A DNA stretch of 47,782 bases, the filler included, from Sphacelaria rigidula (taxonomy: Eukaryota): NCBI GenBank assembly GCA_964200075.2. It is 2 parts of 2 records of this genome, joined end to end, with 100 filler letters (N's around TTAATTAATTAA, not from the genome) between each part and the next. Parts side by side here need not be neighbours in the genome. Positions count along the whole stretch, not along the records: positions 1 to 23,854 come from CAXNAA020000243.1; 1 more part is not named here. One strand, 5' to 3'. Below are positions 1-37,165 of this stretch, one piece after another. The notes beneath the pieces were generated by a model that saw nothing but the letters and a program-made list of their open reading frames with translations, made no database searches and had not been told where the DNA came from. Positions within the stretch are counted from its first letter, which is position 1. Each line of letters begins with the position of its first letter. The position numbers were made by a program, and so were the translations under genes.

Positions 1-49
1 GGTGGTTTGTTACGGCCGGCGCACACCCCCGCACCGGCCATCGAGGGGG

Positions 50-80
<31 letters not shown>

Positions 81-382
81 AATTCTCGATAGTCGAGTAT
101 ATCGCTGCATAGACATATACCCCTGAGCTCCTATCACCCACACTCCCTCGTAAATGCAGATTGAGCAAGCGCAAAGCATCCAGCGTAATGAATCCACCCA
201 TCCAGAGCTCGATACGTACAGTAGACAGGCATCTCCCTACATCCGTGACAGAAACATTGTGGCATCGCAACGACGAGGGCAATGGAGATGATCACAAACC
301 TGCATGTCAGGCAGGGCACACATATATATCGACGTCTCGATTTCTACCTACAGTGATCGTCAAGGCGAAACAAAGTCATCAC

Positions 383-2941
383 CTGAGGGACAGCCGTCTG
401 CGCCCCCTGCATGATAGCATGTACGGCCGGGCTGACCTCTCGGTCCTGCTCCTCCTCGACCGCCGCTGCCATTATTGCTGGCTCGCTTGCCTTGCCTACA
501 AGCAGTTGCTGTCCTCCTTCCGCACCGCTTCCGGATCCCTCCGATCCCGTGTCCGCCGACGGATGCTGCCGTTTCTGCTCTACTTCGGAGGCTGCCGCCT
601 CCGGCGCTTCCACCGGTACTGCAGCGGCTGCCATCGCTTGCGCCTCAGCCTCCACTGCAGCGTCATCGGCTTCCTGTGCCTTCTCCGTTCCTTTCGCAGC
701 CCTAGCTTCCTTCGCGGCCACTGCCTCGGCGGCCTTGACTCCCCTCGCCTCCGCGGCACTCGTTGTGTTGACAGCGGCCTTGGCTGCTTCCGCGGCGGCC
801 ACGGCAGCGGTAGCTTCTTCTTCAGCTTCGAACTGAGTGGCCTTGGCTATGCTTTCTTTCCTTGCAGCGGCGGCCTGTTTCTCTGATTCCACTCGGTCAG
901 CCCTAGCCTTTTCTTCTCTCTCTGCACCGGCGACCTGTTTCTCAGCTTCCTCTCGGGCGGCCCTGGCCTCTTTTTCTCTCTCTGCAGCAGCTGCCTGTTC
1001 CTCAGCTTCGTCCTGGGCGGTCGTGGCCTTTTCTTCTTCTGCAGAGGCTACCTGTTTCTCAGCTTCCTCCTGGACGGCCCTAGCCGTTCCTTCTCTCTCT
1101 GCAGCGGCGGCCTGCCTTTCAGCTTCCTTCTGGGTGGCCCTAGCCTTTTCTTCTCTCTCTGCAGCTGCTGCCTGTTTCTCAGCTTCCTCTCGGGCGGCCC
1201 TAGCCTTTTCTTCTCTCTCTGCAGCTGCTGCCTGTTTCTCAGCTTCCTCTCGGGCGGCCCTAGCCTTATCTTCTCTCTCTGCAGCGGCTGCCTGTTTCTC
1301 AGCTTCCTCCTGGGCAGTCCTAGCCTTTTCTTCTCTCTCTTCAGCGGCTGCCCGTTGCTCAGCTTCCTCCTGGGCGGCCCTAGCCTTTCCTTCTCTCTCT
1401 GCAGCGGCGGCCTGCTTCTCAGCTTCCTCCTGGGCGGCCCTGGTATTCTCTTCTTCTCCAGCGGCTGCCTGTTTCTTCGCTTCCTCTTGGGCGATCCTGG
1501 CCTTTCCTTCTCTTTCTGTAGCAGCTGCCAGTTTCTCAGCTTCCTCTTGGGCGGCCCTAGCCTTTTCTTCTCTCTCTGCAGCGGCTGCCTGTTTCTCAGC
1601 TTCCTCTTGGGTGGCCCTAGCCTTCATCTCTCTCTCTGCAGCGGCTGCCTGTTTCTCAGCTTCCTCCTGGGCGGCCCTGATATTTTCTTCTTCTGCAGCA
1701 GCTGCCTGTTTCTCAGCTTCCTCCTGGGTGGCCCTAGCTTCTTCTTCTCTCTCTGCAGCAGCGGCCTGCTTCTCAGCTTCCTCCTGGGCGGCCCTAGCCT
1801 TTTCTTCTCTCTCTACGGCGGCTGCCTGTTTCTCAGCTTCCTCCTGGGCAGTCCTAGCCTTTCCTTCTTCTGTCGCAGCGGTCTGTTTCTTAGCTTTCTC
1901 TTGGGCGACCTTGGAATTTTCTTTATCCGCAGGGGTTGTCTGTTCTTCAGCTTCCCCTCTGACGGCCATAGATTTCTCTCCCTTCTCCGCAGAGGCTGCT
2001 TCAGCAGCCACTTTCTCTTTTTCGGTATCTTTCGTTGCCTGTGTTGCAGCCACCATCTGCTCTCCTTCTGCTATGGCATCATCTCCAACATCAATCTCCC
2101 CCGCGCCGCTCGTCTCTCGTCGAGTTCCCTCTTCTGATGACGTAACGACGGCACTTTCTGCACAGGCGGGTTGAGTGGGCCTCGTCGCCCGCAAAGGTGG
2201 CGACGTAGCTTTCGCTGCAGCAGCAGCATCGATGGCGGTGGCAGCGGCAGACACCGGTGTACGCTCTGACTCAACACGCACTCTGGTCTCAGCCTCACTC
2301 ACCTTCCGCTCCTCCACTCCCGTACTCACTCCTTCGTCGCTTTCGTTACCTCCACCCTGTCTGCCAATAGTGCCATCAGACTCAGCCCTTCTGCTCCGTG
2401 ATGGCGACGTCCTCGATGACTGGAATCCTGGCTGTTTCTCAGGCGTCTCCACCGCGTCGGTAGCGGCAAGCGCCAGCGCTTCCGTTGCGTTCTCTTCTGC
2501 TTCCGCACTGGCCACGACCGCTACCGCAGCCTCAATAACGCTAGCTGCTAATTCATTTATCCGTGCGGTGACGGCGGCAGCGCTGTCACCAACAGCATCT
2601 GTCGTCTCAGTACTCAAAACCGGTTGTTCCGCTTGATAATCTTCTCTTCCATCCGTTGCGGCCATCTCAGGTGCGACACCAGCTTCGGAGATGGAAGACG
2701 CGTTGGAAGGCGAAATTACCCCATCCTTTTCCCCCCTTCCAGAGCGGTTTTGCGACTTTTGGGGGGTGGCGGGGGAGGGCCCCGGGGCGGACAATGTCTC
2801 GGGCCAACGAACTACCTCTAGCGCCGCCATTTTGACATTCCAAGTAAAGGGGTATATCGGTCCGTCTTCCCATGGTTGGTACTCGACGGTGTGGTTGCGG
2901 ACCCCCTTTGCGTTTGCTAGCGGCTGCCTGATTACCTTGCC
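383..2941 (-). CDS. Exon: second half of module 3 and Ala/Glu/Lys/Arg helical repeat region; the gene probably continues past the window start
   Basis: Acceptor cgacAG|GGC at 2941 is in frame with ORF 344-3001. Probable donor CAG|GTGATG at 383/382; otherwise the frame stops at 344. Confidence 0.8.
840..1905 (-). repeat. Coding minisatellite: about 18 units of 60 or 57 bp (QEEAEKQAAAAEREEKARAA)
   Basis: Near-identical consecutive 60-nt lines at 1081-1440, interspersed with 19-aa variants such as EEENIRAA and EEENTRAA. Confidence 0.95.
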
Positions 2942-3461
2942 CTGTCGGTTTCGGTTGTTCCCCGTGCCGTCGATCAAGAAAGGAGTGTAGAATAAAGACA
3001 CCGATGATCACACGGGGAGAGGAGGGAGGAGGGGGAGACTAGAACTGGTGGGGGCCATGTGAAATGACTTCAGACGACAGACAGGGCGGAAGCCATTACC
3101 ACATAATCTCGCCGTGCTCCTCTCGACGAAACACATTGAGCATTCATTTATTCGAACTCGTGTAACAGACGCGGCAGTTATACCACGTACAGTCGTATCA
3201 CAAAGTGTTGAGGCAATGCTTGGGGAGTACACAGTTTAATGTCGTTCCAGTATGAGCGGGCCGAAAATACTCTCCTCGGCGATAATACCGACAGTCCAAA
3301 TGTTTACGCTCAAGCCAAATTTACTATTTTTGCCTGCATGTCGTCTACCCCTCCGCTCTCTACTCACACATTGACTTTCTTGGAACCACGCAAGTTTTGC
3401 GCCATTTACACGTGAGCTATTTCGACAGTTTCATCTTAACTCAACGACAAATCCACCTCAC

Positions 3462-3887
3462 CTCCCGACCAAGCAGCTCATGGAAGCCTGCTGGTCTCTG
3501 CTCGCTTCGCGCAAACTTCAAGCTCCGACCGGGATCCATGTCTACCGTGCGAACAACCACGATCGTCCCGATGGGATAGCCGAACTTTTCGACAGCGGCC
3601 GTAACCGCGGGAGAGGGCGGGGTCGGCTGTGGTGACGGTGACAGCAGCGGTAGAGACGGCGGCAAAGGTAGTGGCAGCGGCGACGGCTGCGGCGATGCGG
3701 CAACTTCGCCCTCTTGCACCTCCGTGGCGATCTGACCAGTGTCGAAGTTAGGCTTCCAGAGAGTAATATACTTGCGTTGGACATTCCAGGTGATCTCCAC
3801 ATCGGTGGGCCCGCCGGGCCAAGTTTCGAAAGCTAGAACGTGGTACCGAGGGGAGCTCCATACGGTAGGTGCTTTCCTAACGATTGC
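3462..3887 (-). CDS. Exon: second half of module 2, Pro/Ser linker, first half of module 3
   Basis: Acceptor atgacAG|GCA at 3887 gives AIVRKAPTVWSSPRYH, in frame with ORF 3441-3800. Donor GAG|GTGAGG at 3462/3461. Exon is 426 nt, phase 0-0. Confidence 0.85.
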
Positions 3888-4243
3888 CTGTCATGGCGGC
3901 GAAAATAGGGTTCAAGACATGAAAGATACAAGCGACGATAGAATTGATCCGAAAGGTCTGGCCCATAAAACAAGTGAGTGACTTAAATAGACGATGGAGC
4001 ACGAACGGCTTACTGCAAGCGCACACAAATTCGTCAGGCGGATGGCGTGGAGGACAGTTTTGGTACTTTTAGGCCATCGAATACGTTCGGAGACAGACTG
4101 GCAACGAAAGCAGTGGGGAAAGTGGTACGCGAAAAAATACTCCCGCCGTCCCTTCGCTCCCTTCGTATGTAGAGAACAACGAGGGCACCCTGCTTTCAAG
4201 ATACGTCCCATACATGCCTAATCTGCCACCATTTCATTCTCAC

Positions 4244-5188
4244 CGTCTTCCCCAGAAGCTCGGCCACCTTGACCCTTCCTTTCGGGTTCGGCCCGCCCCT
4301 CTCGTCGTTTGACCACTTGGGTAACTCGACGAGCACAGCGCGGGTGCCCACGGGAATAGACCAGACCTCTCCGTCCGCAGCCTTCATCTCCTGGATCTCG
4401 GCCTCATCACCATCGTCGTCGTCCTCCTCCTCCTTCTCATCATCATCATCATCATCATCATCATCTTCGTCATCATCATCTTCATCATTATCGTCGGCAT
4501 CGTCTTCATGCTTTTCCTTCTTCTCTGCACCTTGCTCTAGCTCCTCTTCGACTGTCTCTTGACCAACTTTTTCCTCTTCATCTATGTCCATTTCCTCTCC
4601 CGAATCTAGTGTCTCGACGGTGTCATTCTTCCTTCGCTCACGACCATCGCCCACTTTAACTCCACCACCAGCCGTCTTCTCAACTTCTTTACGCAGTCCG
4701 GCTCGCTCTACCTGCCCCTGTTCATCGCCATCACTGCCACTATCGTGTGCCCCGCTATCGCTGCTTCGCCGATGCCTCCCCAGTGCGACCTTGCTTGCCC
4801 TCCTTCTTGACACTCGGCGCGTCGGCCTGCTGTTCCTAGGAGTATCTACTTCTGAGGACGTGTCTTCGTTAGCAGCATTGTCCTCTGCGCCGTCGGCTAA
4901 CACCGTTCCTCGGACTTCATCAAGAGAAGCAGCTCTCCTGGGTCCGTCTCCGCTGCCGCGCCGTGCCGGAGACGGTGAAGATTGCCCTACACTGGTGCCG
5001 GCCGCGGTGTCAACGGAAGCCGCATTTGTGCTCCCCGTTGGCTGTGCTGTCGACGGCGGGGCCTCACAGAGAAATCCGGCCTTCACTTTGAGCTCTACTG
5101 GCTCGTCAGGGCCGCCTTCCCACGGCGGAAACTCCACCGTGTGGTACCTTGGACCTGAAATCCACGTGGGCTTTTTGATAACTCGGGC
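4244..5188 (-). CDS. Exon: second half of module 1, poly-Asp/Glu tract, first half of module 2
   Basis: Acceptor caatcAG|GCC at 5188 and donor ACG|GTGAGA at 4244/4243. Exon is 945 nt, phase 0-0. Confidence 0.85.
4404..4506 (-). repeat. (TCA/TCG)n microsatellite encoding a poly-Asp/Glu tract
   Basis: Run of TCATCATCA..., translated as EDDADDNDEDDDDEDDDDDDDDDEKEEEDDDDGDE. Confidence 0.9.
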
Positions 5189-5558
5189 CTGATTGATATG
5201 TTTGTACGCACGAGCCGAGTGAGGGGGCAGCGGGAAAATGGTCGTAAAGCACGTTCCATAAAGAGGGGACGAAATCAACCGACTACATCGAAAACAGCAC
5301 AGGGAAGACGCTGATGACCCCGTCAATGATTAAACACTTGCAACTTCCCACCTGTTGACCTGTGGATGGTAAACTGCACCCATGCAATATCCACCCTTTT
5401 ACGATGAGTATAGCCCCGAAGCAACCGAGCAGCCTCAAACAGCCACGGAAACAACGAAATAATATGAGCGATACGACAAGCCCAAGCGACATACGAAATA
5501 AATCTAGCGTTGCGCAACCACGAATGGAAAAGTTGACGTGTGCCGGCCGTCCTCTCAC

Positions 5559-8500
5559 CGTCTTGTTGAACAAATCTTCCAGCTGTATAGGATATGGGGG
5601 CCTCGGTCTCAGCGCTTTGCCCTCGGTCGGGATGTTGAGGACGACGAACGTGCCTTCCGCATAAATTCGAGCCCCAACACTTTTTCTCTTGCGCTTTGAA
5701 GCGGTAGCCTCTACGTCCCCCTCCTGCCCCTCTTCTCCGTCCTCTTCCTCGTCGCTTCCTTTTGCCACCCCCTCTCTCCCGACATCGTTGACCTCCACCC
5801 CGGCTTCTTTCGTTACTTCGCTCTCTTGCCGCTTCTCCTGCGGTTCCTGCGCCACCACCTCTGCCGCTTCAGCTTCTGCTGAGGCCGCCCGCCGTGAAGA
5901 ACGCTTGGGGGTCTTGGTGATATCTTCTGACCGCTCCTCTTTGCTCACGTCACGTTTGGGCCCAGCGTTGCTGCTGTCTTTCGCGATGTCTGCAACGGGT
6001 TCCGCCCCAATCGCTTCCTGATTTGGTGCCGCGATTGACTGGCTCTTGCCCGTGCTGGGAACGCTCTCCTCCACATTGTCCCTAACCCTCGCCTGAGGGA
6101 CAGCCGCCAAATCGGTATCAACATCAGTTGAAATATCCCCGGTGCTTGTCCCCGCCGGAAATTCTGCTCCCGTTCGGGCAGTAGTAACGTCGTCTTGCAC
6201 GTCCTGACGTCTGTTCTGTTCCGCGCCTTGACTGCCACCATTGGTTGCGTCAGTGACCCCCTCGTCTTCCCCGCGAGTTCCATCCCTGACACCGCGCAAA
6301 GATCGTCTTCGTGGGTCTAATACCGCGCCCGCCCGGCGTGGTCGCAAGGATTGAAGAGGTGAACGGAGTGTCTCACCAGGCTCAGCCGCTGGTGCCGTGG
6401 CTGCTGCCGCCGTTTCGGCCTGTAGCGGAGGTTCTGCCGACGTGGACAAGAGTGGCAGCGGAGGAGCTGCTGACACCGTGGTTTCGTGTTCATCGCCCTT
6501 ACGATTCGCCGTTCCTTCTTTGCCAACCTTGTGTGTTGTCGCTGTGGCGCTTGCAACGGTAGAAGCATCAGGATCAGCTGCAACGATTGGCTGCGGTACG
6601 CCCTCCGCGACAGGTACCTTCTCCGCTCCCTTCTTCGGGATTTCCCCTGCACTTGGCAACCTTGCTGTACAAGCACCGGTTCTGTCCGAGCTAGCTCGGG
6701 ACATCCGAGATGATAAAATTGAGGAAGAGGAGGAGGAGAACGAGGACGGACACGACAGGTCAGGAAGGCGTGCGGCAGAATCGAAACGAGTACCAGTACT
6801 AGTCACACTGGCGGTTGTACCAGCGGCGGCGGTCGTAGCTGAGGTCGACGAGGCTGCAGTCGGGCGGATAGGCGACGCTTCGTGGGCATTTGTACTGTCG
6901 GCTCCATGCATAAAAGGATCAGACGTGTCTTCAAGAAAGAAGTCGTCGTGGTCGCCGCCCATACCGTGAAACTCTAGCGAAGAAGTCGGCATGGGCAGGT
7001 GCTCGTATGCTGAGCTGAGTGTATTCCCTGCTAAAGGTGGCGGCTCATTTTCTACACCGTTCCGTCCCCGTTCTCCTCCAACACTACTGGTGGGAGTGCC
7101 ACCAGAGATGGGGCCAAGAGCAACCTTCGTCGGAGTACGTCGAGCCTCGTGACTGCCCGGGGAACGGTTGGCACGTGCGGAGGATCCCGAACGAGACGAC
7201 GGTGATTCCCCATACCGCCCACCGGCGCTGGAACGACTCGGTGGTGTATCGCAGATGCGCCTTGAGCTTGCGTTACCTCGGTGCCGGTCCTCCTTATCTT
7301 TGTTACCTTCGGCACTCCTGCGTCTCGCATGCGCGACGTCTTGGTTGATATCTCGCTCAAATGCGCTCTGCTTGTTGTAGCCACGTTCACCGCTCCGCCG
7401 CTCCCGGCTTCGGCTCCGGGCGCGCTCATTGCCACCGCTGCCGCGGCGACCATACGCGTCAATTGGTGTTGATTGGTAGTCTTTGAAGCCGCCGTTGCCG
7501 CAACCACTACGCGTAGCCCCGTCGCGGCCTGTGCTACCCCCACGATTATCCTTCTCACTGTAACTACTACTACGGTCGCGGGATCTGCGGCCTTTTTGAT
7601 CCGACCAATTTACCGTGCTCTGAACCGCCTTTCCGCCCTGAGAGCTACCACTACTCCTCGGCGCCCCTCCCGAAGATCTGCTGGCGCTGCGCTTGACATC
7701 CGGCTGGCCATGGCTCCCGTGGGCACGACGTTCTCGAGAACGATCATTCCGAGCCCGTTCTTTGGCGTAGTAGCTGCTGGTGCGATCGTCATGTCGACCC
7801 CTATCGTGGTCACGGCTGCTGCGGCTACCCCAGCTGTCTCTGTTTCTGTCGCGACTGGAGGATCTACGGCGATGATCACGACCACCACTGTCGCGGCTGG
7901 CGCTGCCACTTCCACCCTTCCACTTGCCCCAAGTGTTGTCACCGCGACGAGAGCCACTGCGCGTGGAAGTATTGTCAATGCTGCTGACACTAGAACTCCG
8001 GCTACGCGAGCTAAACTCCGGCTCCGTGCCGCTACTGTTACTGTCACTGCTGCTGGAGCTACTCCTGCTACTGCTACGTAGACTTCTACGACGGGCGGGG
8101 GAACCGTCGCCTCTCCGTTGCTGTACCCCTCTCGAACCGGATCCACTCTTGCCTACGTGCGGCCGCTCGTAGCCAGCAGCACCAACAGTTGCGCTGTCAC
8201 TGCTGCTACTCCTCTTGTTGCCGGTTGCGTTGCTGCCATCGATACTATGTTTTTTGGCACGTAGATTGCTACTACGGGGAGGAGACCCATCAACACTCCG
8301 TTGCTTGGCCTGTTCGTAACCGGATGCACTCTTGCCCACGTGTGGCCGATCGCCGGCAGCAGCAAGAGCAGAACGCTCGTTCGGTCGTCGGCCTCGACCT
8401 GTAGTCAATGCATTATCCAACATAATCGCCGGGAGATTACTTTGTGTCGACGATTGAGGTGGTGAAGGCGGAGACGACACCGCCGCCGTGTTGCTGTGGT

Positions 8501-8714
8501 GTTTCCCCTTTTCATGCATGGACTGAGCGCTACCCTTGGCTGAGTCACTGAGGTGACGACCTCCACCCTTCGCACTCGTACCTTGCCGCTGATTCAAGTT
8601 GAGCTCAATCGATGCCACCAAGTTTTGGACGATACTGGCGGCGTCTACATTCTGCCCACTACGGGGGCCCACCGGCGAGGGAGGTCTCCTCCTGGCTGCG
8701 CTTGTCGCGGATAC
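5559..8714 (-). CDS. Large exon of the PHD protein: Arg/Ser-rich and acidic disordered region, ending with the first half of repeat module 1
   Basis: Acceptor cctcttgacAG|GTA at 8714 is in frame with ORF 5283-8672. Donor ACG|GTGAGA at 5559/5558. Exon is 3156 nt, phase 0-0. Confidence 0.82.
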
Positions 8715-8961
8715 CTGTCAAGAGGACAAGGTGACATCACACGCACGGAAGGTAACGAGTCTACGTACAAAAAAAATGCGTGTAAGCTGGTTCCAGGGAA
8801 AATGAAGACGAACGTCCTCCACACAGCTCTCAGGGGTCGGACGAATCGTCGCTAGTTCGAATCCCCTAATCTACGATTTCTGAAGCCTGATTACTACAAA
8901 GAGACAAAGTTGGCCGCGGGTTAACAAAGTCTACACGTGAATTTTGCGCTATTCCACGTAC

Positions 8962-9009
8962 CTGGGGTGCGCGAACGTCGGGCGTATCGCTCAACAAAAA
9001 GCCCGAGAA
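8962..9009 (-). CDS. Candidate 48-nt micro-exon of the PHD protein (FSGFLLSDTPDVRAPQ)
   Basis: Acceptor aatcAG|TTC and donor CAG|GTACGT, phase 0-0, stop-free, compatible with the flanking exons. Confidence 0.4.
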
Positions 9010-9160
9010 CTGATTCATTCGGTACGAAGCAATGACACTAAAACCAAGTAACTCCCAGACGAATTATTATTCGCTCGACCCTTGGAAGTTTTGCGCACAT
9101 ATAGGCGCCTATCTGGAGAGCAAATAAAGCCGCGTCATCATTTTTCTTGTCCCTCGGCCC

Positions 9161-10406
9161 AAGGCTTTAGTTTCGTATGCGCGCATAAAGTTTAGCTTAA
9201 TTTCGGTTTATTTAGCTTAAATAGGCCTGTTAAGCGCAAAGCTTATAATCGGCTTAATACGCCTGAGACGAGCTTAACTTGCTTAAAACGCGCATAAGCG
9301 CGCATGAAACGCGCATAAACTTGCGATAGTTTTTTGCTCGCAAGTGCTCCATGTGGCGTAACTCGCCACTAGACATGCCGGCAGGCGTCAGGCTTCAGGC
9401 TCCATCACTCAATGCTTCAAATTTCCACGGTCATGTTTCGTTTTCCTATTTTTTTGCGGGTCTCATGAGCAGAGTGCTCAACTCTATATTTAATACACAT
9501 GGGACTATGTTGCTTTAAAAAATATGACAATAATATTCACTTGTACTTTGTACAGCAGACAGCAGAGAGCAACAGTAATAGCAGAACCAACAGAGAGAAG
9601 TGATAACGAGCGATAGCAGCGTTTGTAACTCACGCGGTCATGGCGGGCCTATTGTCCGAGAAGGACGACTTTTTGGTCGCGGCCTCAAGCACGCACTCGG
9701 AGTATGATTTGCTGTCGTTTTCAGATGACAACACGAACAGGCTTCCCAGTTGGTATCTCGTGGCGATGGATATTGTACTTATCCAGCCATCTTCCGCGTC
9801 TACGGAGCGAGTGTTTTCGATTTTGAGGAGGTGCTTGAACTCCCGGCAGGAGAAGACGTTGGGTGACTACATCGAATCCGTAATTCTGATGAAGTACAAT
9901 CGGTACTGGTAGTTCGACAAGATTTTCAATGTCGACTGATGGTAAATGATGCGGGGTGATGGTAGCTTGTAGCTCGTAGCTTGCCGAGCGAGAGGCCAAA
10001 GGCTGAAATGCCCTGTGTCTAGAGGCTACAATGCCGTTCTGTGGTATCGAGTATCGTAAGTGTAGTGGCGTTTGCTGTTTCCGTACGTGGGTTAGGGTGT
10101 AGGTGCGCAGGTTGTAGTCTCCAAACTCAATAACTGAAGAAAAGCTTCATCTTTAAAATATAAAAAATGAACAAAAACTTCGAATGCCCAACTTGTCGTC
10201 GTGTCTTCCTACTATTATAGAATGCGCGCCTCGTGAGGGGAAACTCCCACAACGCCACGACAAGGACGGGAAGAAGGCTCATAAAGCGCGCCTAATTTGC
10301 GCTGAAAAGGGTTAAAATGGAGCTCAGTACCCGAAAAAAAGCTTATATAGAAAAAAAACTGGAGCTTAATATCAAGAAAAAAACGCGCATACGGAACTAA
10401 AGCCTA
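9161..10406 (+). mobile_element. hAT-superfamily transposon, internal-deletion (non-autonomous) derivative
   Basis: 23-bp TIRs AAGGCTTTAGTTTCGTATGCGCG (9161-9183) and CGCGCATACGGAACTAAAGCCTA (10384-10406). Exact 8-bp TSD CTCGGCCC at 9153-9160 and 10407-10414. Subterminal GCTTAA/GCGCATA motifs. Confidence 0.92.
9640..9912 (+). pseudogene. hAT transposase C-terminal dimerisation-domain remnant
   Basis: LPSWYLVAMDIVLIQPSSASTERVFSILRRCLNSRQ matches the hAT dimerisation motif (PxSSAxxERxFS) and lies inside the TIR/TSD-bounded element. Confidence 0.88.
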
Positions 10407-11170
10407 CTCGGCCCTGACTTCATCGGTGCTTGAAATGAAACTGTGCTATGGGTTACCCTCCAACATGATGGATCTTCGTGTGGAATTACTTGCGTCACAT
10501 ACCTGTCAGCTTCCGTGCTCTAGGTCGGAATCACCACGAAACCACCAAAAGATGATATTTGCAGCGAGTGCTCGTCGCAGTCTCGGCACAGCAAGGCAAG
10601 CCCTCGAACACGAATAACTTCATACTGTGCGCGCAGCTAACTACGGTGACCCCGAAAACAGCACAATTCTGGGGTTGCGATGGTTGTGTGCAGGGGGGGA
10701 AATGTATCAGGTGCTGAAAAGTTTGAGGGCACACGGGGAACGTAGGGAGATGATGTTTTGGTACACAACCAGGTGAGACTGCTGCGTTTGGGTCGAATCT
10801 TTTATCCTTCGTCCCCAATTGAAACAGCACCCCCGGCCCGAATCCGGCAACGGCGTTGTGCTCGTCCCATACTTATCCTGTTCTCATCGTCGAGCAGATA
10901 TTATCAATGGCATACCGTCTCCCTGGTGATCACAAGAAAAGCTGTGTTGAAAGTATTTTTTTCAGTTTTTTTGAGCGTGACCCGCATTCAGGGGAGGGGA
11001 CCTTAGACCCACTTTCATGGCAACGACTCTCGACTTGTACAAATATGATAATCTCAGCCCGTCTTCAGGCGATTTTCTCCCGTGGATTGATTTTTCGGAC
11101 CCCAGACCGTTGGGCAATGTTTTTCGCCTAGCTGTGAACAACCCAGATCATTTCTCCGATTCTCTGGACG

Positions 11171-11300
11171 TTGACTTTTGGTTTACCATCTTTCTGCCCA
11201 AATCGGGACACTCCTGCATCTCCTTCGATTCTTCTGAAAAAATCGAGGGAGATGCAGGAGTGTCCCGATTCCAGCAGAACGGTGATGTATCGAAAGTCAA
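11171..11300. repeat. Long fold-back: 30-bp near-perfect stem with 10-nt loop and an imperfect outer extension
   Basis: 11201-11230 AATCGGGACACTCCTGCATCTCCTTCGATT pairs with 11241-11270 at 29/30 positions. The outer arm TTGACTTT..TTCTGC pairs with GCAGAA..AAAGTCAA. Confidence 0.9.
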
Positions 11301-11582
11301 TAAGCAGGAATATCTATATGAGAACGTGAGGGCAAAGTAGTGTCACCTAAGCCTGCCGACAAAGAACTGCGGGCCGAACGTATCCGTCCATCCACGGCCG
11401 TGTCTCACATATTGCGCTTGATCCTGTTTCCCGTGCAGTCCCGCGGGATTATTTCTTGGGGGAGCGGGGTTTATTGGACATGTTTGGACGATGTAAGGAC
11501 CACACTGAAACCGACGTAACCCTAGACCGACCGATTGTTTCGTACTAATAGCCGCCGAGCCCCGGTGGTGTAATGTTTCGAC

Positions 11583-11856
11583 TGTCGTTATTAGGGTGGA
11601 GAGAACGAAGGTTCGATTTCCGATGCGTTGGGGTGTTTCCTTGTTTTATGTGATGTCCACCGTGGAAAGCGTGAGAATATGCGTAAACAAAGCAGTCGAC
11701 AGGGTTTGTTTGACGTGAGTTGACGCGGTGCGGGAGTGCTGACCCAATCCGTGAGACCAAAATGAAAGGCGTGTACCGGGGGAGAGATGGGTTAATTAAT
11801 CCCTTGAGACCGCGGACTCGTCCCGAGGACGGGGAAGGGTTCAAAGTACGACAAAA
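11583..11856 (+). repeat. Dispersed repeat family A, copy 1
   Basis: Colinear with 20100-20369: TTAGGGTGGAGAGAACGAAG..CCACCGTGGAAAGCGTGA..TTGACGTGAGTTGACGCGGTGC..CTGACCCAATCCG..AAAGTACGACAAAA. Confidence 0.9.
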
Positions 11857-11986
11857 AAAGGGGGGGGGAGGGCACAAATCGACCTTTTGACGTTTTCCGA
11901 AAGGAGGTATTACGTCACATTTAACCGACCGCTATGCCCGTTGCCAGTACAGCCACGGGCTTATTATCGCGTTCACGCCTCGTGCG

Positions 11987-14932
11987 TACGAGCGGGGCCA
12001 GCCTAAAAACGGATCTAAGCTCTCAAAGCGATATCTCAACCACACAGACGAGTTGGGCCGTGATCCAGATATCGCGGTAATCGCCTAATCAAGGGGAAGG
12101 TGCCCATCTGCTCAAAAATCTGGGCCAATTTTTCCCGTTGATTAAACCCCATGTCTAGTAATTCCTATTCCGTACGGCGATAGCTTCCACACTAAAATCT
12201 ATATGAAACCCCGAACGATTCATTCAGAGGATGATGACGATTTCTCTTGTAGACCTTTCCTGGAGCACGGGTAAACCATGGATACCGTCACCTGCACCTA
12301 ATTTCTACTTCATCTCGAGATGTGGCCCACATAAGGTTTTATACTAAAATCAATATATTACGAGCAGAGGCACTAGATGCCCTGAATCTGGATATCGCGT
12401 CTCAGTTCTTGAGAGTTGTGCTGAGAAATTTGGTGTGGAGAACCGCTAGTGCATATAATGAAATTGAACAAACAGCTTTTCACTTTTTCTCGGGTTTTTT
12501 CATTTTTTTTCGTGTTTTTAGAGGAGTTTTAAGGAGAAATGAACATTGTTCTTGAGCCTTATTTCAATTTGAAACTTAGCATGGAGAACGACGGAGGTAT
12601 GCCGAATAAAAAAATATATATGGGCCTTCATCTTTTTAAGGGATTTACACGTTACACGTGACGTTTTCACGTGCAAATTCGAAAAAGCGTAACTTTGGTT
12701 CATTTAACGCTTCGTAAGGTTTGATGTTTTGGATGAGACAAATGTAACGTAACGTGATATAACGTGAGGCCCTTCGCATGAACCCTGACATGACGTTTTA
12801 CTTTCCAAATGTGACGAAAACTCTGCTTGTTTTCGTGAATATGTAACGTGTCACGTGTCACGTAAAAAATTCACAAAAAACAGTTTTTCTTCACATCTGG
12901 AAAATACCAAGAGACACTGCTTCAAGATCAACACTTTACATCACGTTACGTTGCACTTGTCCCGTCCAAAAAAACAAGGTTGTCTTTTGTAGGGTATACC
13001 CGGAAGTGGGTGATTTTTAGTTGACATACCAAACTATCGCGGAGTGTGTAACGCACATTCAAGTATGACTCGGAAGGGTATCGAGCCCTGTTCCGAACAC
13101 TCTGGTGAGGTTCTCAAGGGCATTTTCTGATACAATACATCCCGGAGACTTCTGTAAATACCTGAATTTTGAGCAGGTATACCCTACAGAACAAAATCTT
13201 GCAGAAAACCAAACTCTACGTACAGTGTTGCGCCAAAAGAAAAAAAAAAAAATCCTCAGCCGATTCCCGCATACAACAGTCATTGTACAAGTTATCAGCT
13301 GGGATCACCCGCAAAGTAGGGGTAGTTCACACGAGCAAGGTGCCCCAGAGGGACGACCTATAGCCCAACACACGGCATATCTGAAAAGGTATGTTTAAGG
13401 CTGGATCGTCGGCACAAGTTGCAGGCCGAGAACGTGACGATATCCCGCGTTCGGTGGTGTGCATGGTGTTGCTCGGTGCGGGTGCCTTGCGGGCCCCATT
13501 GTACGACGATAGGTGGCGACCACGCTTAGTGTTCCAGCGCACCACCGCGCCCAGAGCGTAGTATATGGAGTGTACAATGCGCTCGAAAAAGAAGCATCTC
13601 ATTCGCTTTCGGCGCACTGGAGAACGGCACAATTGTTTGCATGCATGTCTGGCGGCGCAGCTGATGGATCTGAAATTTGAAAACTCCGCCATGACCACTA
13701 CATAAAGTGTAGTTTAATACGCTGATTCAATGTACGGTCTACAGACAGTATACCCGTACCGTGAAACTACACAACCGCATATGATATGCGGCGTAATCAT
13801 GACGTCACCGCGTCTCACTGCTCATCTTCATTTGAGTGCTTTCCTACGGTAAAACCACCATTTTTCAGTGCAACTTGGATTGTGGATTTCTCGCCTGCGA
13901 TTGCGTGTTCCATCGTGAAATTTTGCACACTAGTTGGGCACAATACAGGCAGCATATGTCCAAAGCATCCGCGCGATTGGGCCCGGGAACACCGTACAAC
14001 ATGGTCCCAACCGATTGTGGAGAATGCCGTCCGTGCGCTCTCAAATCGGCCATGCTGCTGCCCGGACTTTGCGCACTATAGGTGAATGCATATGTGCACG
14101 CACAGATGCACAAAGTTGGACGTTTAGCGCGGCTGGGCGGTCGATGTGGCAGAAAACTGACGCCGGTCTGTACTGCGACCCTCTCTGGATCATGAACATA
14201 TGTAGTGTACCGATCGGCATACGGTCTGTAGAGCTGCGCAGTTCACGACGTACGGCCCTGCGCGCGATGTAGCCGTCGCGAGGCGCTGAAACTTTGCACA
14301 TATGTTGTGCGAACCACAGTCAATAGTTCCACGTCGCTATATCTGGTACTGTGCGCTGCAGGAGTGCGCACTACAGGAAAGAGTGGTCAATTTCTGTTCC
14401 GAGAAAATTGTTTTTTTTTTTCTTTTGGCGTAACACTGCGTAGCATTAAGTGGCCCAAAGTTGGGTTTTTTTTCCGTTTTTTTCAAATGTGTCACGTGTG
14501 TAACGTACATATCGCTGATTTTTTTTCTTGGGAATGGTTCGGTCGTTGTCGTAACAAAATGGTCATTACCGTACTAATGGTTTAAACCAGCGAAAAAATA
14601 AATCAAAACCAACCTGATCCATTTTTCTTGGTTCATCATGACCTAGCGAGGTCCATCACAAAGTTTCAAAACACAAACACCAAAAGTGGGTCGGTAAACG
14701 GCCCGCATAATACTGTCCAAGTTTTTTTTTTCATGAGTTAAGGGCAGAGATCAATTTCAAGGTTTTAGTAAAATGTCCTAAAATCACCAGAAACAAAATT
14801 GGGACCCGGCACAAGAAAAAAAATCATGCCCTGTTGAGTGTCCATACCAATTTTTACTGTCCAACTCTAAGTAGAAAATTTGCGAATTCGCCTGCAAACT
14901 ACAAATCCGCTTCTGGGCTGGCCCAGCTCGTA
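11987..14932. mobile_element. Tc1/mariner-like DNA transposon, apparently non-autonomous (about 2.94 kb)
   Basis: Left end TACGAGCGGGGCCAGCCTAAAAACGGAT (11987-12014) matches the reverse complement of 14905-14932, TACGAGCTGGGCCAGCCCAGAAGCGGAT, at 24/28 positions. TA on both outer sides is consistent with a TA target-site duplication. No recognisable transposase ORF inside. Confidence 0.7.
12727..12971. repeat. Internal ~40-bp imperfect inverted repeat rich in AACGT/CACGT motifs
   Basis: 12727-12766 (TTTTGGATGAGACAAATGTAACGTAACGTGATATAACGTG) is an imperfect match to the reverse complement of 12932-12971. Confidence 0.7.
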
Positions 14933-15149
14933 GGATATTGAGGACCGTTGCCAAGAGACTGTACGTGTGCGCATATACAGGAAGCCGTTGATCAGTCTGC
15001 AGCGTAGCGTGGAACAACGGATGAAAACCGTACAGTACAGTGCAGTATAGTACTGCTTGTGGCTGATTGCATGACGTATGGCTGCCTAACTTCTGAAAAT
15101 CTCTCTTCGGACTGCATGACCACAGGTTGTGTTCACAAAATTAAACCTT

Positions 15150-15960
15150 TTGGTCCTGGCAATGGGAAGATGCTGACTTCGAGGTGCTGTTTTTTTAGCA
15201 ACAAATGGTCGATTGTTTTACAGCTTCCACGCAGCACTTTTGTGCCCAAGGCGTGTTTTTCAGACCCGCTCCAATTGGCGGTAGATCGCGTCAATATCGC
15301 GCCTCAATCCTTCCACGTATGGTGAGGGGATTTCTGTGTGCTCAGCCATACTAATTGGTTTCTGTGACGTAGCTTAGCACGCTGGTCAAGTGTTATGCGG
15401 GTACGAGCTCCGGGCTCCAGCACAACAATATCCCGGTAGGGTGCGTCACCGTTATCAAAGTGTGCCCCAGTGCCACACGGGACTGCATGTACAGAAAATA
15501 TACAGGAGGTGCTGATTTTTGCTGTATGAATTCAGAGGCCGCGGTGCTGATTTTTGCTGTATGCACAAAGTTGAACACACTTGACCCGTTGCGTCCCATC
15601 ATTGGATAAAACTAATCCAACCGCACCCCGGCGACATTTTTGGTGCCAGCATCATCTATGTCGGGTTCTTCTGCGGCCGTAAAAATAGTCGTTGTCGGTA
15701 TTCTTCATTTCCCGTATTATCTTCTTTCTCAGCGCTTGAAAGAATGAGGCGTCTGGACCGGGGACGGGAGGGGAGAGTTCCCAAACGGTTAAAGACCTTG
15801 CCAAAAGCATGAAAGCCACACAACTGCCCAGAAAAGGCGCGTGGCAGCACCGCACTGAGAGGCACAACCTTTGACTGCCTTCGACGCGGCAATAGCAGTG
15901 TTCAAAAAGTTTACGCATAAGGCATGCCATGTTTCCAAGACGACCGTCATGATCAACAAG
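15150..15960 (-). pseudogene. Frameshifted exon relics resembling a PHD finger followed by a bromodomain
   Basis: Hand translation across frames gives EHCYCRVEG..CC..F.GSCV.F....VW (degenerate PHD-like). It then gives FQALRKKIIREMKNTDNDYF / APYRDIVVLEPG..RITL / HTWKD-LRRDIDAI..ANW (bromodomain-like helices). Several 1-nt shifts are needed and the resemblance was judged by eye. Confidence 0.35.
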
Positions 15961-16173
15961 AGCAGACCAACTCAAACAACTGCAACAAAAACAACAGGAA
16001 TAACTCCTATCCCATGTTCTGTACAAGCACGCGGTTCTCCCCCGCATAATATAGCCGGCGCTGTGGCAAAAAATGTTCTGACCCCATGTGTCAAGCTGTC
16101 GATCTGGGAGACATCTGCGGCATTTGGCACTCAAAAAGGCTTCATATCAATCAACATCGTTAAAAAATCTCAC

Positions 16174-16607
16174 CTTTTTCCCCGAGACAGAAGCGCCCTC
16201 GGCGAATGCCGCCGCAACCTTTGGCTTCGCGGCCGCGTTTTTCTTCAACAGAATTTTCCCGACCCCCCCGAGCTTAGACTTCTTGCCAACCGTATCCTTA
16301 CCACTAGCAATCGCCTTCTGCTCCTCGGGAGAAAATAGGTACGACTTTTTGCCGGCTCCCGCTGCCTTTACCGCAGATGGCGTAGATTTTGTGGCAGTGT
16401 AGGCGTAAGGCGCTGACTTGGCTTTACCGCTCGACTTTGCCCTGCCCAGCGGAATCAAATCCTGGCCTGCCGGCGAAGGATCGCCTGTCCCGTTCCCGCC
16501 GACAGTTGAAATCGGCGCACTTGGAACACGCACCAATGGTGACGGTGGCAACGGTGACGGTGGCAACGGAGGCGGCGGTTGCTCCGGTGGCGGAGGTTGT
16601 GTCAGCG

Positions 16608-16638
<31 letters not shown>

Positions 16639-17868
16639 CGGCGGTGGTGGCGATGGCGGCGGGGGTGGTGCCCTAGCAAGCGGCGATGGCCTCGGCGATG
16701 GCGATTGCAACGGCATCATCGCTGCGGGAGAGAACGGTTCAGAGCCCAGCACTCGTGACACAGCCGGCAGCGGAAAGGCATGCGTAGGATCGTCAAGCGA
16801 TGTTGGCGACGTCAGCGGAAGGATCACGGGGTGGTCTGAGGGGAGCGGCGGAGGCGGGGGTGGCGGCGGCGGGGGAGGTGGCGGCACCTTCCCGGTGAGT
16901 CCGTCTCCTGGGTTCTCTGAGAGCGACTGCTTGGCCTCCCCTGCTCTTGAACGGCGTGGCGGAGTTGGCGGCCTTTTCGTGTGGGAGGACAACGGTGGCG
17001 GAGGCGGCGGTAGCGTCACGCTTGTAACCACAGAAGATGTGGCCGCGATATTCTTCGATAGCGTCGGTGTAGCGTGGTTTGCATTGCCCTGAGGGTTTAT
17101 TAGCAGAGGCGGAGGAGATACTACCTTCGTTCCCACCCCAGGTGAGCGTGGCGGGCTCCCGGGAGGGGGCGGTGGAGGTTGCTTCTTCTGCGTAAGATGC
17201 TTTCCCCCTTTGCCCCCATTGATTGGTAGGCCGCTCTTGTCTGTCTCCTTAGTAGCAACGTCCATATCGCTGTCCCAATCAGGGGTGCTCCCGCTGTTTG
17301 TTTCCGCGTTTTCTCTGTTTCCCACTTCCATCCCCCCTACATTATGATCTTGCGATGACTCGACCGACGCATTTTCTACGGCTCCACTCTGCCTGTTTGC
17401 GGCCGAAGCAGCCGCAGCAGCCGCTACAATGCCCGCCACACTTTCTTTCTGTTTTTCCGCCATCAACGACTGCAGTCTAGCCACAGTGGCGATCCCTTCC
17501 GCTTCGGCATCGCGGACACTAATGCTCGCTGAGGGCACACCGCCCGTAGACCCCGCGGCACCAGGGGCTGTTTTACGCTTTGTTGCCAGGGGAATGGGAG
17601 CGTTTGCACCGGTGCGAGGTGTGCGTTCCTGTTCTGATTCAGTTTCATCGTCGCCGGACCCTGAAAATCCTGGAATATCGTCTTGACCCGTCGCCACGCC
17701 TCCACCGTTGTTCGTAGGAGAAGCCTTAGTAGAGGCATACGAGGAGAGAGACAGTGCCCCAGGCGAAGCTGCCATCTGGGTCTGGACACTGGGCGGCCTT
17801 TGGTGAATCAGCTGTCCAAGCAAGTCGTTTTGCACCAGTATAGGAGCAGGAGTAAGAGCGGGCCCAAC
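16174..17868 (-). CDS. Exon 2 of the PHD protein: Pro-rich low-complexity region
   Basis: Acceptor ccacctttAG|GTT at 17868 is in frame with ORF 16147-17835. Donor AAG|GTGAGA at 16174/16173. Exon is 1695 nt, phase 0-0, with poly-Pro runs. Confidence 0.8.
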
Positions 17869-18130
17869 CTAAAGGTGGAATCGAGCCGGCACAGAGTCGC
17901 AGCACAGGGAGGATCGGGGGATAGGCGACAAACGATTTCAAAGGACATACATGCGACCGACGCAGTGCGCAGTGTTCTCTGGCCACAGCAAAATAAAAAC
18001 GATTACACCCCACCTAGGTGCGAGAATGATCTTGTCACCACAACAGCTACGCGCGGCTACTTCATGAAGCGCACCGCTGAAGCGCACAGCACAGTGAAAA
18101 TATTGTGCGATGACAATGAGTATGCCTTAC

Positions 18131-19261
18131 CGCCCCCCTGATGATCGGAGGAGCCCTGGCCGTTGCGGCCTCAGCTGCTGCGTCCACCGCCGTCCCACGA
18201 GAGCCCGAATCCTCTCCGTTTCCCACGGTGGCCGCTGCAACTCCCGGTCCCTCCTCATCCCTTCCATCCTTGGCACCAGTCTCTTCTCCAGGTGGCGCCT
18301 GACAATTGCGGCAGAGCCATTCCTTTGGCGTCTCCGCACCCTTCACATTCACGCAATTGGCATGCGATGGAGTCTCGCATTTGCTGCATCTTATCGTGCG
18401 TTTGCGACCCTTATCTTTGCCGCAGACCGGACATAGCTCCCGCTTCTCTCCTCCGCCGCCAATGCTGCCACCAGTGTCAGCGCCGCTGGCCATACCCATC
18501 TTCATCGGTGAGCTCGTCACAGCCGGCGAGGTCGGAAGTGCACCTACACGTGGCGGGGAGCACTGCGGAATCACCTCGTCCCCTCCTTCGACAGATAATC
18601 CCACACTATGCGCTATCGAGCCCGCCATGCCCACGACATCGACCACAATTTCGCCAGATCCGGACTCGGACGCACCCGCTTCCGCCTCCAACCCTGTCCC
18701 CGCTGCTTCGTCCTGGGCAATCATGCAAGTCTTGCACTTCCAAAACTTGGGAGGAAGCTTGTAATTGTGCTCGTAAAATCCCATGCACGACCAGTGGAAG
18801 GACTCGTCGCAACCGTCGCATTTGACTCTCCGCGACAATTTCGGCGTTGTGCAAGCTTTGCACGTCGACGGTATGCCAGGAGCTTGCTCGTTGTCCGCCA
18901 CCGAACGTGCCGGCCTCTTGTCCCCTACCCCCCGCTGAGACCTATCACTTGGTGCCCCATTTCCCATGGATGGAGAAGATATGCCGACGTCTCCCGCCGC
19001 GGCCGAGGCTAGAGGCAATGGATTCTTCCTTCTACCATTGTTCTCGCCAGAAACGTCTTCGCCTGTGCTGAAACCCGGGAGGGTTGGAATCGAACGAGGG
19101 TGAAGCGGGTTATCTCCGTCTGTTCGTGGCCCGCCGTTGGTATTGACCTCATCTGCTCTGGCCACCTTCCCTTCCCGGCTGTTTATGTCACGGTTGTCAC
19201 TATTAGGGGCATCTTGGTTGTCCCAGCTGCTTCCCTTCCCGGAAGCGATCATTGTTGCCAT
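18131..19261 (-). CDS. Exon 1 of a giant PHD-finger chromatin-associated protein; contains two PHD fingers (about 18725-18862 and 18302-18433)
   Basis: ATG at 19261. Two C4HC3 motifs with the conserved Trp: CKAC..KCDGCDESFHWSC..WKCKTC and CPVC..RCSKCETPSHANC..WLCRNC. Donor GCG|GTAAGG at 18131/18130; exon is 1131 nt, phase 0. Confidence 0.85.
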
Positions 19262-19306
19262 TTTTATAAACTGGGTGCAATCGCCTCGGCGCGCTTCTTG
19301 ATGAAG

Positions 19307-19673
19307 TGTACGTCAGGCCGGTTACTTCGTGTAGCTGGTATCTGCCGGGACATCCGATCGGGACAAAATAGTATTGCGAAAACGTATTTATTGAGATCGA
19401 GTATGCTTTGTGTTCACATACATCAATGAGGTATACTATAAGGAGGGGGCTGTCGCACCAGCGGAGACGGTCATCACAGAATACTGTGTACAGTGTACGC
19501 AAGGTCCATTGCTGGTACCTGCCGGGATATCCGGTCGGGACAAGAGGGTATTGGAAATACGTTCTTCTTGAGTAGCGTGAATTCGATTACACTTGGCATT
19601 TTACACACCAATGAGGTAAGCTGCAGGGGATTGTCGCATCAGCGGAGACTGTCACCGCATTGTACTGTGTACA
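19307..19673. repeat. Diverged ~185-bp tandem duplication just upstream of the PHD gene ATG
   Basis: GCTGGTA(T/C)CTGCCGGGA(C/T)ATCCG(A/G)TCGGGACAA ... CAATGAGGTA ... TGTCGCA(C/T)CAGCGGAGAC ... TACTGTGTACA occurs twice (about 19307-19492 and 19493-19673). Confidence 0.85.
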
Positions 19674-20032
19674 AACATCATTTTTCCAGGATACCGTTTC
19701 TTTTTCCCATCTTCTGTCCTCTCTTATCTTCTAGTAGTTCACTCCATTTCCTCCTGCTTTTTCCTTCATATTCCTCGTCGACTGATTCTCCTTTGGTGGG
19801 TGTTTCCGTCTCTTCACCTTCGGTACGGGTACCGTATGGCTCTCGACCACGGCTGGATTTCGCAGCGGATCACCGGGCGGTGTGATGGTCCGACTGTCAT
19901 CACTAGGGGGGGGGGGGGGGAACTGTTTTTTTGCTTTCCTCTGTCGTTTTACACGATTGCCCGCCTTCTGCGGTGGGGCAGGGCCCGGGCGCAAGCCCAA
20001 ACTGCAGTTTCAAAGGCGGGGGGGCGGTGATT

Positions 20033-23854: not shown

Positions 23855-23954
23855 NNNNNNNNNNNNNNNNNNNNNNNNNNNNNNNNNNNNNNNNNNNNTT
23901 AATTAATTAANNNNNNNNNNNNNNNNNNNNNNNNNNNNNNNNNNNNNNNNNNNN
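23855..23954. other. Assembly artefact: 100-nt contig spacer, N44-TTAATTAATTAA-N44
   Basis: Symmetric N runs around TTAATTAATTAA (23899-23910), which has stop codons in all six frames, a typical artificial linker. Confidence 0.95.
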
Positions 23955-30369: not shown

Positions 30370-30646
30370 GGTTAAAGTACTTCTCCAAAACCTCCGTGCT
30401 GAAGCGCGCGATGTCCTTCACTCGAAACGCAAGCCCGTCTGGCAGCCACTCGACGATATCTTTGTCTTCCTCTTCGACGAGCGTAAACAGCTTTTGAGCA
30501 AATAGCTGAGGCCCACCGCGGGCGCCCACGCGACGGGTGGGACTGAAGGCCGAACCTGCGATGACAGTAGGCACTTCCGCCGGTGCCACCGGGGTCGCTG
30601 CGCACGATACCTGAGACACTTGCTGCTGGTCTGTTGCTGACGACAT
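30370..30646 (-). CDS. Heat shock factor, exon 1 (spliced product about 549 aa if this ATG is the start)
   Basis: ATG at 30646. FAQKLFTLVEEEDKDIVEWLPDGLAFRVKDIARFSTEVLEKYFN is the first half of the HSF DBD. Donor C|GTGAGT at 30370/30369 is phase 1 and joins to give KYFNHSKFTSFQRQLN. Confidence 0.92.
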
Positions 30647-37155: not shown

Positions 37156-37165
37156 NNNNNNNNNN
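37156..37165. other. Small assembly gap within a poly-C low-complexity tract
   Basis: 10 N flanked by long C homopolymers (about 37067-37221). Confidence 0.95.

Follow-up and report, generated by a model that had tools for sequence, protein, structure and literature searches.

A PHD-finger gene of Sphacelaria rigidula carries three intron-split copies of a conserved, unnamed module of ~85 residues

From the analysis of a 47,782-nt stretch of Sphacelaria rigidula DNA (assembly GCA_964200075.2; in the following called the window), we delineated one large gene unit on the minus strand. It comprises at least 3,304 codons within the window, counted from an ATG at position 19261, and its transcript extends past the window start. 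The encoded protein begins with two PHD fingers, followed by a Pro-rich region, a Ser/Arg-rich region of net charge +55, three copies of a module of ~85 residues and an Ala/Glu-rich repeat array. The modules 1, 2 and 3 correspond to residues 1956-2036, 2267-2353 and 2409-2494 of the in-window protein, which is low-complexity outside of them. To delimit the exons, we used contigs from three RNA-like runs (X1-X3) and from the DNA-like run X5. X1-X3 belong to one study and, like X4, were marked as RNA by a software guess, with no RNA entry on record. The principal features are, in the direction of transcription:

18725..18862, minus strand: PHD finger 1 (Cys/His pattern; PF00628)
18302..18433, minus strand: PHD finger 2 (Cys/His pattern; PF00628)
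17869..18130, minus strand: intron of 262 nt (GTAAGG..TTTAG) separating the exon of the PHD fingers from the Pro-rich one; X1-X3 contigs join 17866 to 18129
8715..16173, minus strand: intron of 7,459 nt (GTGAG..ACAG) between the N-terminal and the module-bearing parts, placed by contig joints
5682..5696, minus strand: basic cluster KRKRK, immediately N-terminal to module 1
5559..5681, minus strand: module 1 N-half, at the 3' end of the 3,156-nt exon 5559-8714, which ends at 5559 in X1-X3 contigs
5189..5558, minus strand: module 1 intron, 370 nt, GTGAG..CAG, phase 0; absent from X1-X3 contigs, retained in X5
5068..5188, minus strand: module 1 C-half, at the 5' end of exon 4244-5188
4244..4372, minus strand: module 2 N-half, at the 3' end of exon 4244-5188
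3888..4243, minus strand: module 2 intron, 356 nt, GTGAG..CAG, phase 0; junction 4244/3887
3753..3887, minus strand: module 2 C-half, at the 5' end of the 426-nt exon 3462-3887
3462..3584, minus strand: module 3 N-half, at the 3' end of exon 3462-3887
2942..3461, minus strand: module 3 intron, 520 nt, GTGAG..CAG, phase 0; junction 3462/2941
2800..2941, minus strand: module 3 C-half, at the 5' end of exon 383-2941
383..2941, minus strand: last in-window exon, spliced out at 383 (donor GTGATG at 382)
863..1907, minus strand: 60-nt tandem repeat, 17.6 copies, encoding a 20-residue Ala/Glu/Lys/Arg-rich repeat C-terminal to module 3

The N-terminal part matched the PHD model PF00628 in two stretches with 51.2 bits (gathering cut-off 24), and both Cys/His patterns show the Cys4-His-Cys3 spacing of PHD fingers. 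A preliminary description of this DNA had assigned two PHD fingers to the same protein as the modules, and the X1-X3 contigs bear this out by linking both parts across the 7,459-nt intron. Every RNA-like run contributes one contig with this joint, and X5 contributes none; the intron itself is packed with high-copy repeats. For the 262-nt intron, the canonical ends were obtained by a 2-nt shift of the contig joint. At the other end of the region, the fit of the X2 and X3 contigs ends at 383, and thousands of further letters map elsewhere. The KRKRK cluster, the one place in the in-window protein with at least four consecutive Lys/Arg, resembles a nuclear localisation signal and its position directly before module 1 would suggest a nuclear context. 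The 20-residue repeat array appears coiled-coil-like.

Each module copy is divided into an N-half and a C-half by a phase-0 intron, such that each middle exon opens with the C-half of a preceding module and, past a linker, closes with the N-half of the following one. These exon units are of phase 0-0, so that their omission would leave the frame intact. For module 1, the splice ends are GT at 5558-5557 and AG at 5190-5189, with the next exon starting from 5188. Contigs of all three RNA-like runs omit 2942-3461, 3888-4243 and 5189-5558, whereas the X5 contigs run continuously through all three module introns with no joint. The three module junctions are thus used in transcripts, at the positions originally proposed. 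All five introns have canonical ends, are missing from the X1-X3 contigs and are retained in X5, and the reading frame is open once the module introns are removed. Of sampled words, X1-X3 contain a fraction of 0.77-0.80, which equals the part of the query that is exonic (4755 of 6001 nt). The G+C content is 0.49-0.50 in the module introns versus 0.57-0.60 in the exons.

The spliced copies are significantly similar to each other, as had been claimed. Pairwise local alignments (BLOSUM62) scored 105, 91 and 63, corresponding to z = 14.0, 12.3 and 6.7, and for every pair none of 2000 shuffles matched the observed score. The intron lies at the same aligned codon boundary in all three copies; with five introns in ~10 kb of coding sequence inside the window, a rough estimate puts the probability of two further modules being interrupted at the identical boundary by chance at ~2.5e-7. 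Run against the entire window translated in all six frames, an HMM derived from the three copies recovered these copies alone, with the remainder at E ≥ 1.8.

To identify relatives, we searched public sequence collections and found unnamed genomic ORFs only. Among 1.84 billion representatives, 13 of 15 matches were ORFs with the layout of an exon unit (C-half, linker, N-half), none of which had the order N-half then C-half, and an intact module was absent from the ORFs of 17 relatives. A profile search yielded seven ORFs, all without names, and a region search gave the sister ORF P0018 as the sole match. No match was obtained for exon 4244-5188 among proteins of 553-2000 residues, a search in which the word filter was probably swamped by the acidic run of this exon. 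P0001, the window's own ORF, was excluded from alignment A1, and P0014 (1382 residues, E 5e-5) and P0015 (1010 residues, E 3.3e-4), which matched via 5-7 short stretches, were excluded from every alignment as presumed low-complexity matches to Pro-rich sequence. We also scanned contigs with sequence patterns, for which alignment A3 was too variable. This yielded 55 matches in viral contigs and 73 in metagenome contigs, none confirmed, and 18 in genome contigs with one passing. The latter was rejected as a probable chance match of 23 residues in a 64-residue out-of-frame ORF overlapping a bacterial gene.

The residues flanking the half-modules in these ORFs indicate that the relatives possess the same intron. 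In all 15 ORFs with an N-half end, Val-[Arg/Ser/Gly] follows directly after Gly-Arg-Glu/Gln, as in read-through of a GTG.. donor, and all seven ORFs extending upstream of the C-half have Gln there, as in read-through of a CAG acceptor. Intron use in the relatives is deduced from these read-through residues; because each relative's ORF consists of C-half, linker and N-half, the intron position appears conserved. The module family is hidden in a particular way. The intron cuts every copy in every relative found, and public protein collections hold ORF-style fragments only, so the family escapes both ORF-based and profile-based annotation. Other families have likely been overlooked likewise, and splicing-aware translation of such assemblies would reveal them.

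A module that already contained its intron was probably multiplied in tandem at an early date. Between the introns, no similarity was found, and the module coding DNA yielded a single 37-nt match between copies (E 0.002); together with the layout common to the relatives, this points to an ancient event. The tandem duplication suggested in the preliminary description is supported, and the relatives' same exon structure strengthens it. Classical exon-shuffled modules, such as EGF, Ig and kringle domains, are bounded by introns mostly of phase 1. The modules described here resemble them in their multiplication as tandem units at the DNA level and in intron phases whose symmetry preserves the reading frame, but the intron lies inside the module, in phase 0, and the repeated exon begins with the rear part of a module and, after a linker, ends with the front part of the following one.

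Comparison with the relatives suggested that the module halves are under purifying selection while the linkers drift. Relative to P0018, the halves are identical at 85 of 87 residues (module 1 C-half, 40/42; module 2 N-half, 45/45) versus 149 of 228 for the linker, and more distant ORFs retain 25-32 of 44 N-half residues versus 0-19 of 51 linker residues. The module 3 N-half is the best conserved piece among relatives, with 16 invariant residues in 13 sequences. This pattern argues that the module is a folded unit. Moreover, no copy has a spacer between its N-half and C-half, whereas the inter-module linkers comprise 55 to 230 residues (a strongly acidic one of 230 and a Pro-rich one of 55), which argues for one unit rather than two. 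We consider it very probable that the module is a real folded domain under selection. Alternatively, the N-half and C-half might be conserved short linear motifs, serving as docking or modification sites in a largely disordered protein and repeated by duplication. The low-complexity remainder of the protein and the low confidence of structure predictions for the pieces fit this idea, but we regard it as very unlikely, given that ~85 residues are conserved in fixed order without a spacer and that Gly, Pro and many hydrophobic and aromatic positions are among those conserved, as expected of a packed fold. The modelled pieces, in addition, are half domains or permuted, for which poor models are expected.

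In agreement with its earlier description as unrecognised, the module matched no named family when half-modules, alone or in permuted exon units, served as queries against Pfam, PDB sequences and the ESM Atlas. Searching Pfam-A (24,736 models), none of the five half-module pieces hit a family at E ≤ 10, and 13 exon units gave at E ≤ 1 eight unrelated families, each matched by a single exon unit (best E 0.0061). The PDB profile search returned nothing significant, the best E of 0.22 belonging to a lipoprotein matched via the low-complexity linker, and the Atlas contained no usable match for the exon unit or the C-half. The module motif strings occur in no paper, which for a nameless family does not demonstrate absence from print, and the passages checked of the brown-alga chromatin paper PMC13076208 make no mention of PHD or readers. 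The module family is real, conserved and unnamed.

Royal-family readers (Tudor, chromo, PWWP, MBT, Agenet) and KOW motifs are small, largely beta, often tandem, often accompanied by PHD fingers and carry conserved aromatics. The module shares the tandem arrangement, the PHD company and the conserved aromatics with them, and could accordingly be an SH3-like beta barrel (Tudor/chromo/PWWP/KOW) whose conserved His, Phe/Tyr and Trp line an aromatic cage for recognising histone methyl-lysine or methyl-arginine alongside the PHD fingers. An SH3-like barrel and an aromatic cage had been suggested in the preliminary description. Its size of ~85 residues, the strand-like alternation of the C-half and a hairpin predicted within this half are compatible with such a barrel. 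Each copy contains 10-12 Phe, Trp, Tyr or His residues, and His, Trp, Gly and Pro are invariant across 15 C-halves, with mostly aromatic positions beside the His and Trp. We nevertheless consider this explanation unlikely. The Tudor, chromo, PWWP, MBT, Agenet and KOW models matched neither the halves (E ≤ 10) nor the 13 exon units (E ≤ 1), the module profile has no relative among solved chains, and the conserved aromatics may be plain core residues. In KOW motifs, the spacing is Gly-x-x-Val ... Gly-Lys-x-Gly-x-Val; the KOW model (PF00467) gave no match, and the Gly-containing stretches of the module lie ~25-30 residues apart. Comparing the N-half with the C-half by hhalign (probability 0.15%, E 0.4) showed that the halves are not alike, unlike those expected of an internally duplicated barrel. 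The SAND domain, of ~80 residues and mixed alpha/beta character with a KDWK signature, also occurs in nuclear proteins that bear PHD fingers. The module is similar in size, in its probably mixed character and in PHD company, but has no Pfam match to it, and neither half shows KDWK in its consensus.

Structure predictions, all of low confidence, showed one hairpin and one short helix. AlphaFold2 modelled the exon unit, with its halves in permuted order, at pLDDT 53.2 with a hairpin of strands 14-19 and 31-36, and the N-half alone at pLDDT 66.2, with residues 38-41 as the sole predicted helix. A complex prediction of the module 3 N-half and C-half as two chains, run without alignments, scored 0.01. 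A crude hydrophobic periodicity scan indicated strand-like alternation in the C-half and a helix-like stretch ending the N-half. Taken at face value, these weak models place the helix after the second strand and before the third, where barrels have a loop, a weak hint of a layout unlike canonical Tudor/chromo domains. The fold is probably mixed, with a beta hairpin and a short helix in the N-half followed by three or four strands in the C-half. One possibility is a compact alpha+beta domain of the order strand-strand-helix-strand-strand-strand, for instance beta-grasp-like or OB-like, that makes protein-protein or nucleic-acid contacts instead of reading methyl marks. The inferred succession of two strand-like stretches, a helix-like N-half end and C-half strands would agree with it, as would the small positive net charge of each module. 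We judge this rather unlikely, as the elements were assigned from low-confidence models and the crude scan, and half-modules and exon units matched no beta-grasp or OB family in Pfam.

With respect to function, we favor as fairly probable a single minus-strand PHD-finger gene with three ancient module copies serving as putative ligand-binding units. These units, together with the PHD fingers, may tether one nuclear scaffold protein to chromatin, or to a partner protein, through several weak contacts. The "histone or nucleic-acid reader" of the preliminary description was a plausible guess from domain company alone; judged by domain company and conservation, a chromatin-binding role is plausible. 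With a net charge of just +1 to +4 each, the modules give no strong indication that they bind nucleic acids. Only tentatively would we place the ligand in chromatin, as a histone tail, DNA or RNA; otherwise it would be another protein. The most far-reaching version, an undescribed fold or family limited to this eukaryotic lineage and acting as a putative reader of a histone mark or nucleic-acid feature, with three copies joined to two PHD fingers in one giant scaffold, seems doubtful; if true, the module would enlarge the repertoire of readers specifically in this lineage.

Should the module prove to bind a ligand, it would be a nameless companion domain of PHD fingers in a little-studied eukaryotic lineage and would offer a concrete handle on chromatin reading there. 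Like multi-reader PHD scaffold proteins, the protein combines two bona fide PHD fingers with repeated, putatively globular modules and long disordered charged regions; it differs from them in that its additional modules fall into no named family and in that it is known from unannotated assemblies only.

On the minus strand, an unnamed segment of about 85 residues occurs in three copies (modules 1 to 3), each divided by an intron into an N-half and a C-half. The junctions previously read from the sequence proved exact in every copy:

5559/5188, minus strand: split of module 1 (exon end 5559, GT 5558-5557, AG 5190-5189, next exon from 5188)
4244/3887, minus strand: split of module 2
3462/2941, minus strand: split of module 3

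The introns of modules 1, 2 and 3 measure 370, 356 and 520 nt, respectively, start with GTGAG, end with CAG and have a lower G+C content (0.49-0.50) than the exons (0.57-0.60). All three lie between codons, hence in phase 0, and an open frame extends from 8717 to 344 once they are removed. The preliminary description had proposed copies of one module split at one position. Pairwise local alignments of the spliced copies scored 105, 91 and 63 (z = 14.0, 12.3 and 6.7), with 0 of 2000 shuffles of one partner matching the observed score in each pair. The similarity is far above chance, and the intron sits in the identical alignment column in 3/3 copies. A three-copy profile found no further copy in any of the window's six frames, every other match having E ≥ 1.8. 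No mutual similarity was found among the three introns and the module coding DNA shares a single match of 37 nt (E 0.002), which argues for an old duplication.

The stretch was present in eight public sequencing runs. The share of sampled words was 0.77-0.80 in X1-X4, runs from one study whose RNA nature is a guess and not on record; the exonic share of the query was 4755/6001 nt (0.79, our own arithmetic). Assembled contigs, not raw reads, of X1-X3 and of the DNA-like run X5 were compared with positions 1-20000. One contig each of X1, X2 and X3 exactly skipped introns 2942-3461, 3888-4243 and 5189-5558 (coordinates with the cut shifted one place to the right, which fits equally well), whereas X5 had none of these joints and its contigs read through the introns. 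Because of this difference, the three module junctions are real splice junctions. Even if X1-X3 were DNA, contigs without five GT..AG introns would represent a processed, spliced copy.

The same contigs place the PHD fingers and the modules in one protein, as had been suggested, although they lie about 13 kb apart on the DNA:

18725-18862, minus strand: PHD finger 1, N-terminal exon
18302-18433, minus strand: PHD finger 2, N-terminal exon
between 17868 and 18131, minus strand: 262-nt intron, flanks joined in X1-X3 contigs
8715-16173, minus strand: 7,459-nt intron, X1-X3 contigs joining 8714 to 16174
863-1907, minus strand: 60-nt tandem repeat (x17.6, 83% matches) coding for a 20-residue Ala/Glu/Lys/Arg-rich repeat after module 3

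Pfam PF00628 scored 51.2 bits (cut-off 24) over two stretches of the N-terminal exon, and no Pfam family matched in the other three large exons. The joined exons, read from the ATG at 19261, form a single frame that stays open for 3,304 codons. At 383 the transcript enters a further intron (donor GTGATG) and runs on outside the window; since it exits via the donor at 382, the C-terminal part of the protein lies outside view. Contigs of X2 and X3 carry >3,400 more letters without a place on the window. The PHD part is followed by a Pro-rich stretch, a Ser/Arg-rich stretch, a KRKRK cluster immediately N-terminal of module 1, the modules (residues 1956-2036, 2267-2353 and 2409-2494) and Ala/Glu-rich repeats. 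The Ser/Arg-rich stretch (residues 941-1500, exon 5559-8714), also rich in Gly, has a net charge of +55 and numerous Arg-Ser and Arg-Asp dipeptides; it may resemble the RS regions of splicing-related proteins. The linker between modules 1 and 2 is acidic (230 residues, net -41), that between modules 2 and 3 Pro-rich (55 residues).

A TCA trinucleotide run (+ strand, x18.7) at 4437-4492, where contigs of all compared runs were broken, corresponds to a poly-Asp tract in the linker of modules 1 and 2. Contigs of X1-X3 and X5 end at 963 and restart at 1833, leaving the repeat array unassembled in all four. The 7,459-nt intron is crowded with high-copy repeats, DNA-run word depth rising from ~70 to thousands and up to 237,000, and contains a remnant of a hAT-transposase dimerisation domain (9607-9912, + strand; PF05699, 32.3 bits).

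Family, structure and fold comparisons all rest on half-modules, with homology at HHpred or fold level beyond their reach. In this scope, 5/5 half-module pieces matched 0 Pfam families at E ≤ 10, and 13 exon units (C-half of one module, linker and N-half of the next) gave merely scattered single-member low-complexity matches. An exon-unit profile matched no solved chain (best E 0.22, via the linker), exon unit and C-half had no usable match in the ESM Atlas, and a comparison of N-half with C-half showed no resemblance. Viral and metagenome collections yielded no relative; a lone prokaryote-genome match was attributed to chance, being located in an out-of-frame ORF. A literature search returned nothing on the module family, a nameless family not being reliably searchable.

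An exhaustive phmmer search of 1.84 billion representatives with the 142-residue middle exon (C-half of module 2, linker, N-half of module 3) yielded 15 matches at E ≤ 0.001. Two long proteins matching in many short stretches, presumably of low complexity, were left out. The remaining 13 are ORFs of 95-403 residues with a C-half, a linker of variable length and an N-half; word-based searches added P0016, P0017 and P0018. All relatives come from assembly collections, and all are unnamed and lack precomputed Pfam domains. None of the ORFs found contains an N-half followed by a C-half. Val and then Arg, Ser or Gly follows Gly-Arg-Glu/Gln in 15/15 ORFs with an N-half end, as results from reading into a GTG-AG/GG donor, and Gln, as given by a CAG acceptor, precedes the C-half in 7/7 ORFs reaching upstream of it. 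From this layout and DNA-level read-through, rather than the relatives' transcripts, the intron position appears to be conserved in every relative found.

Within the aligned ORFs, conservation falls mainly on the module halves rather than the linkers. Against the sister ORF P0018, 85/87 half-module residues are identical versus 149/228 in the linker; more distant ORFs keep 25-32/44 residues of the N-half and 0-19/51 of the linker. Invariant are 16 residues in the N-half of module 3 (13 sequences) and His, Trp, Gly and Pro in the C-half (15 sequences). The consensus reads YP.GT.VVV...PGR.LKFARGE..A.F.ELLGRE for the N-half and ..V.K..T....R.H...F.PW.GGP...TW.V.RK.L for the C-half.

A conserved, repeated and spliced module thus stands within a PHD-finger protein, and it very probably represents a folded domain. 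AlphaFold2 gave pLDDT 53.2 for the exon unit (halves in permuted order), with a C-half hairpin as sole element, and 66.2 for the N-half alone, where a single short helix was predicted at residues 38-41. This fits a crude scan of hydrophobic periodicity, in which the N-half end appeared helix-like and C-half stretches strand-like. Together, these results weakly suggest the order strand-strand-helix-strand-strand-strand. A Tudor-like reader with an aromatic cage appears unlikely; the canonical Tudor/chromo layout differs from this order, a difference that in itself excludes nothing. The net charge per module is only +1 to +4 and gives no strong pointer to a nucleic-acid ligand. Each folded module probably acts as a binding unit, and the three together with the PHD fingers probably form a multivalent nuclear scaffold; a chromatin ligand is conceivable, if somewhat doubtful.

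The arrangement is familiar in kind, a small repeated module beside PHD fingers, multiplied via tandem duplication. Unfamiliar are the family itself, an unnamed and lineage-restricted domain family, and the position of the intron, which lies within the module rather than at the module borders; because this intron splits every copy, the family stays hidden. Elsewhere in the window, two minus-strand ORFs (27666-29132 and 30206-30739) match PF00447 profile positions 1-46 and 41-100, respectively, each covering about half of the HSF-type DNA-binding domain, so that the domain of this neighbouring heat-shock-factor-like gene is also intron-split. N runs at 23855-23898, 23911-23954 and 37156-37165 were read as assembly gaps.
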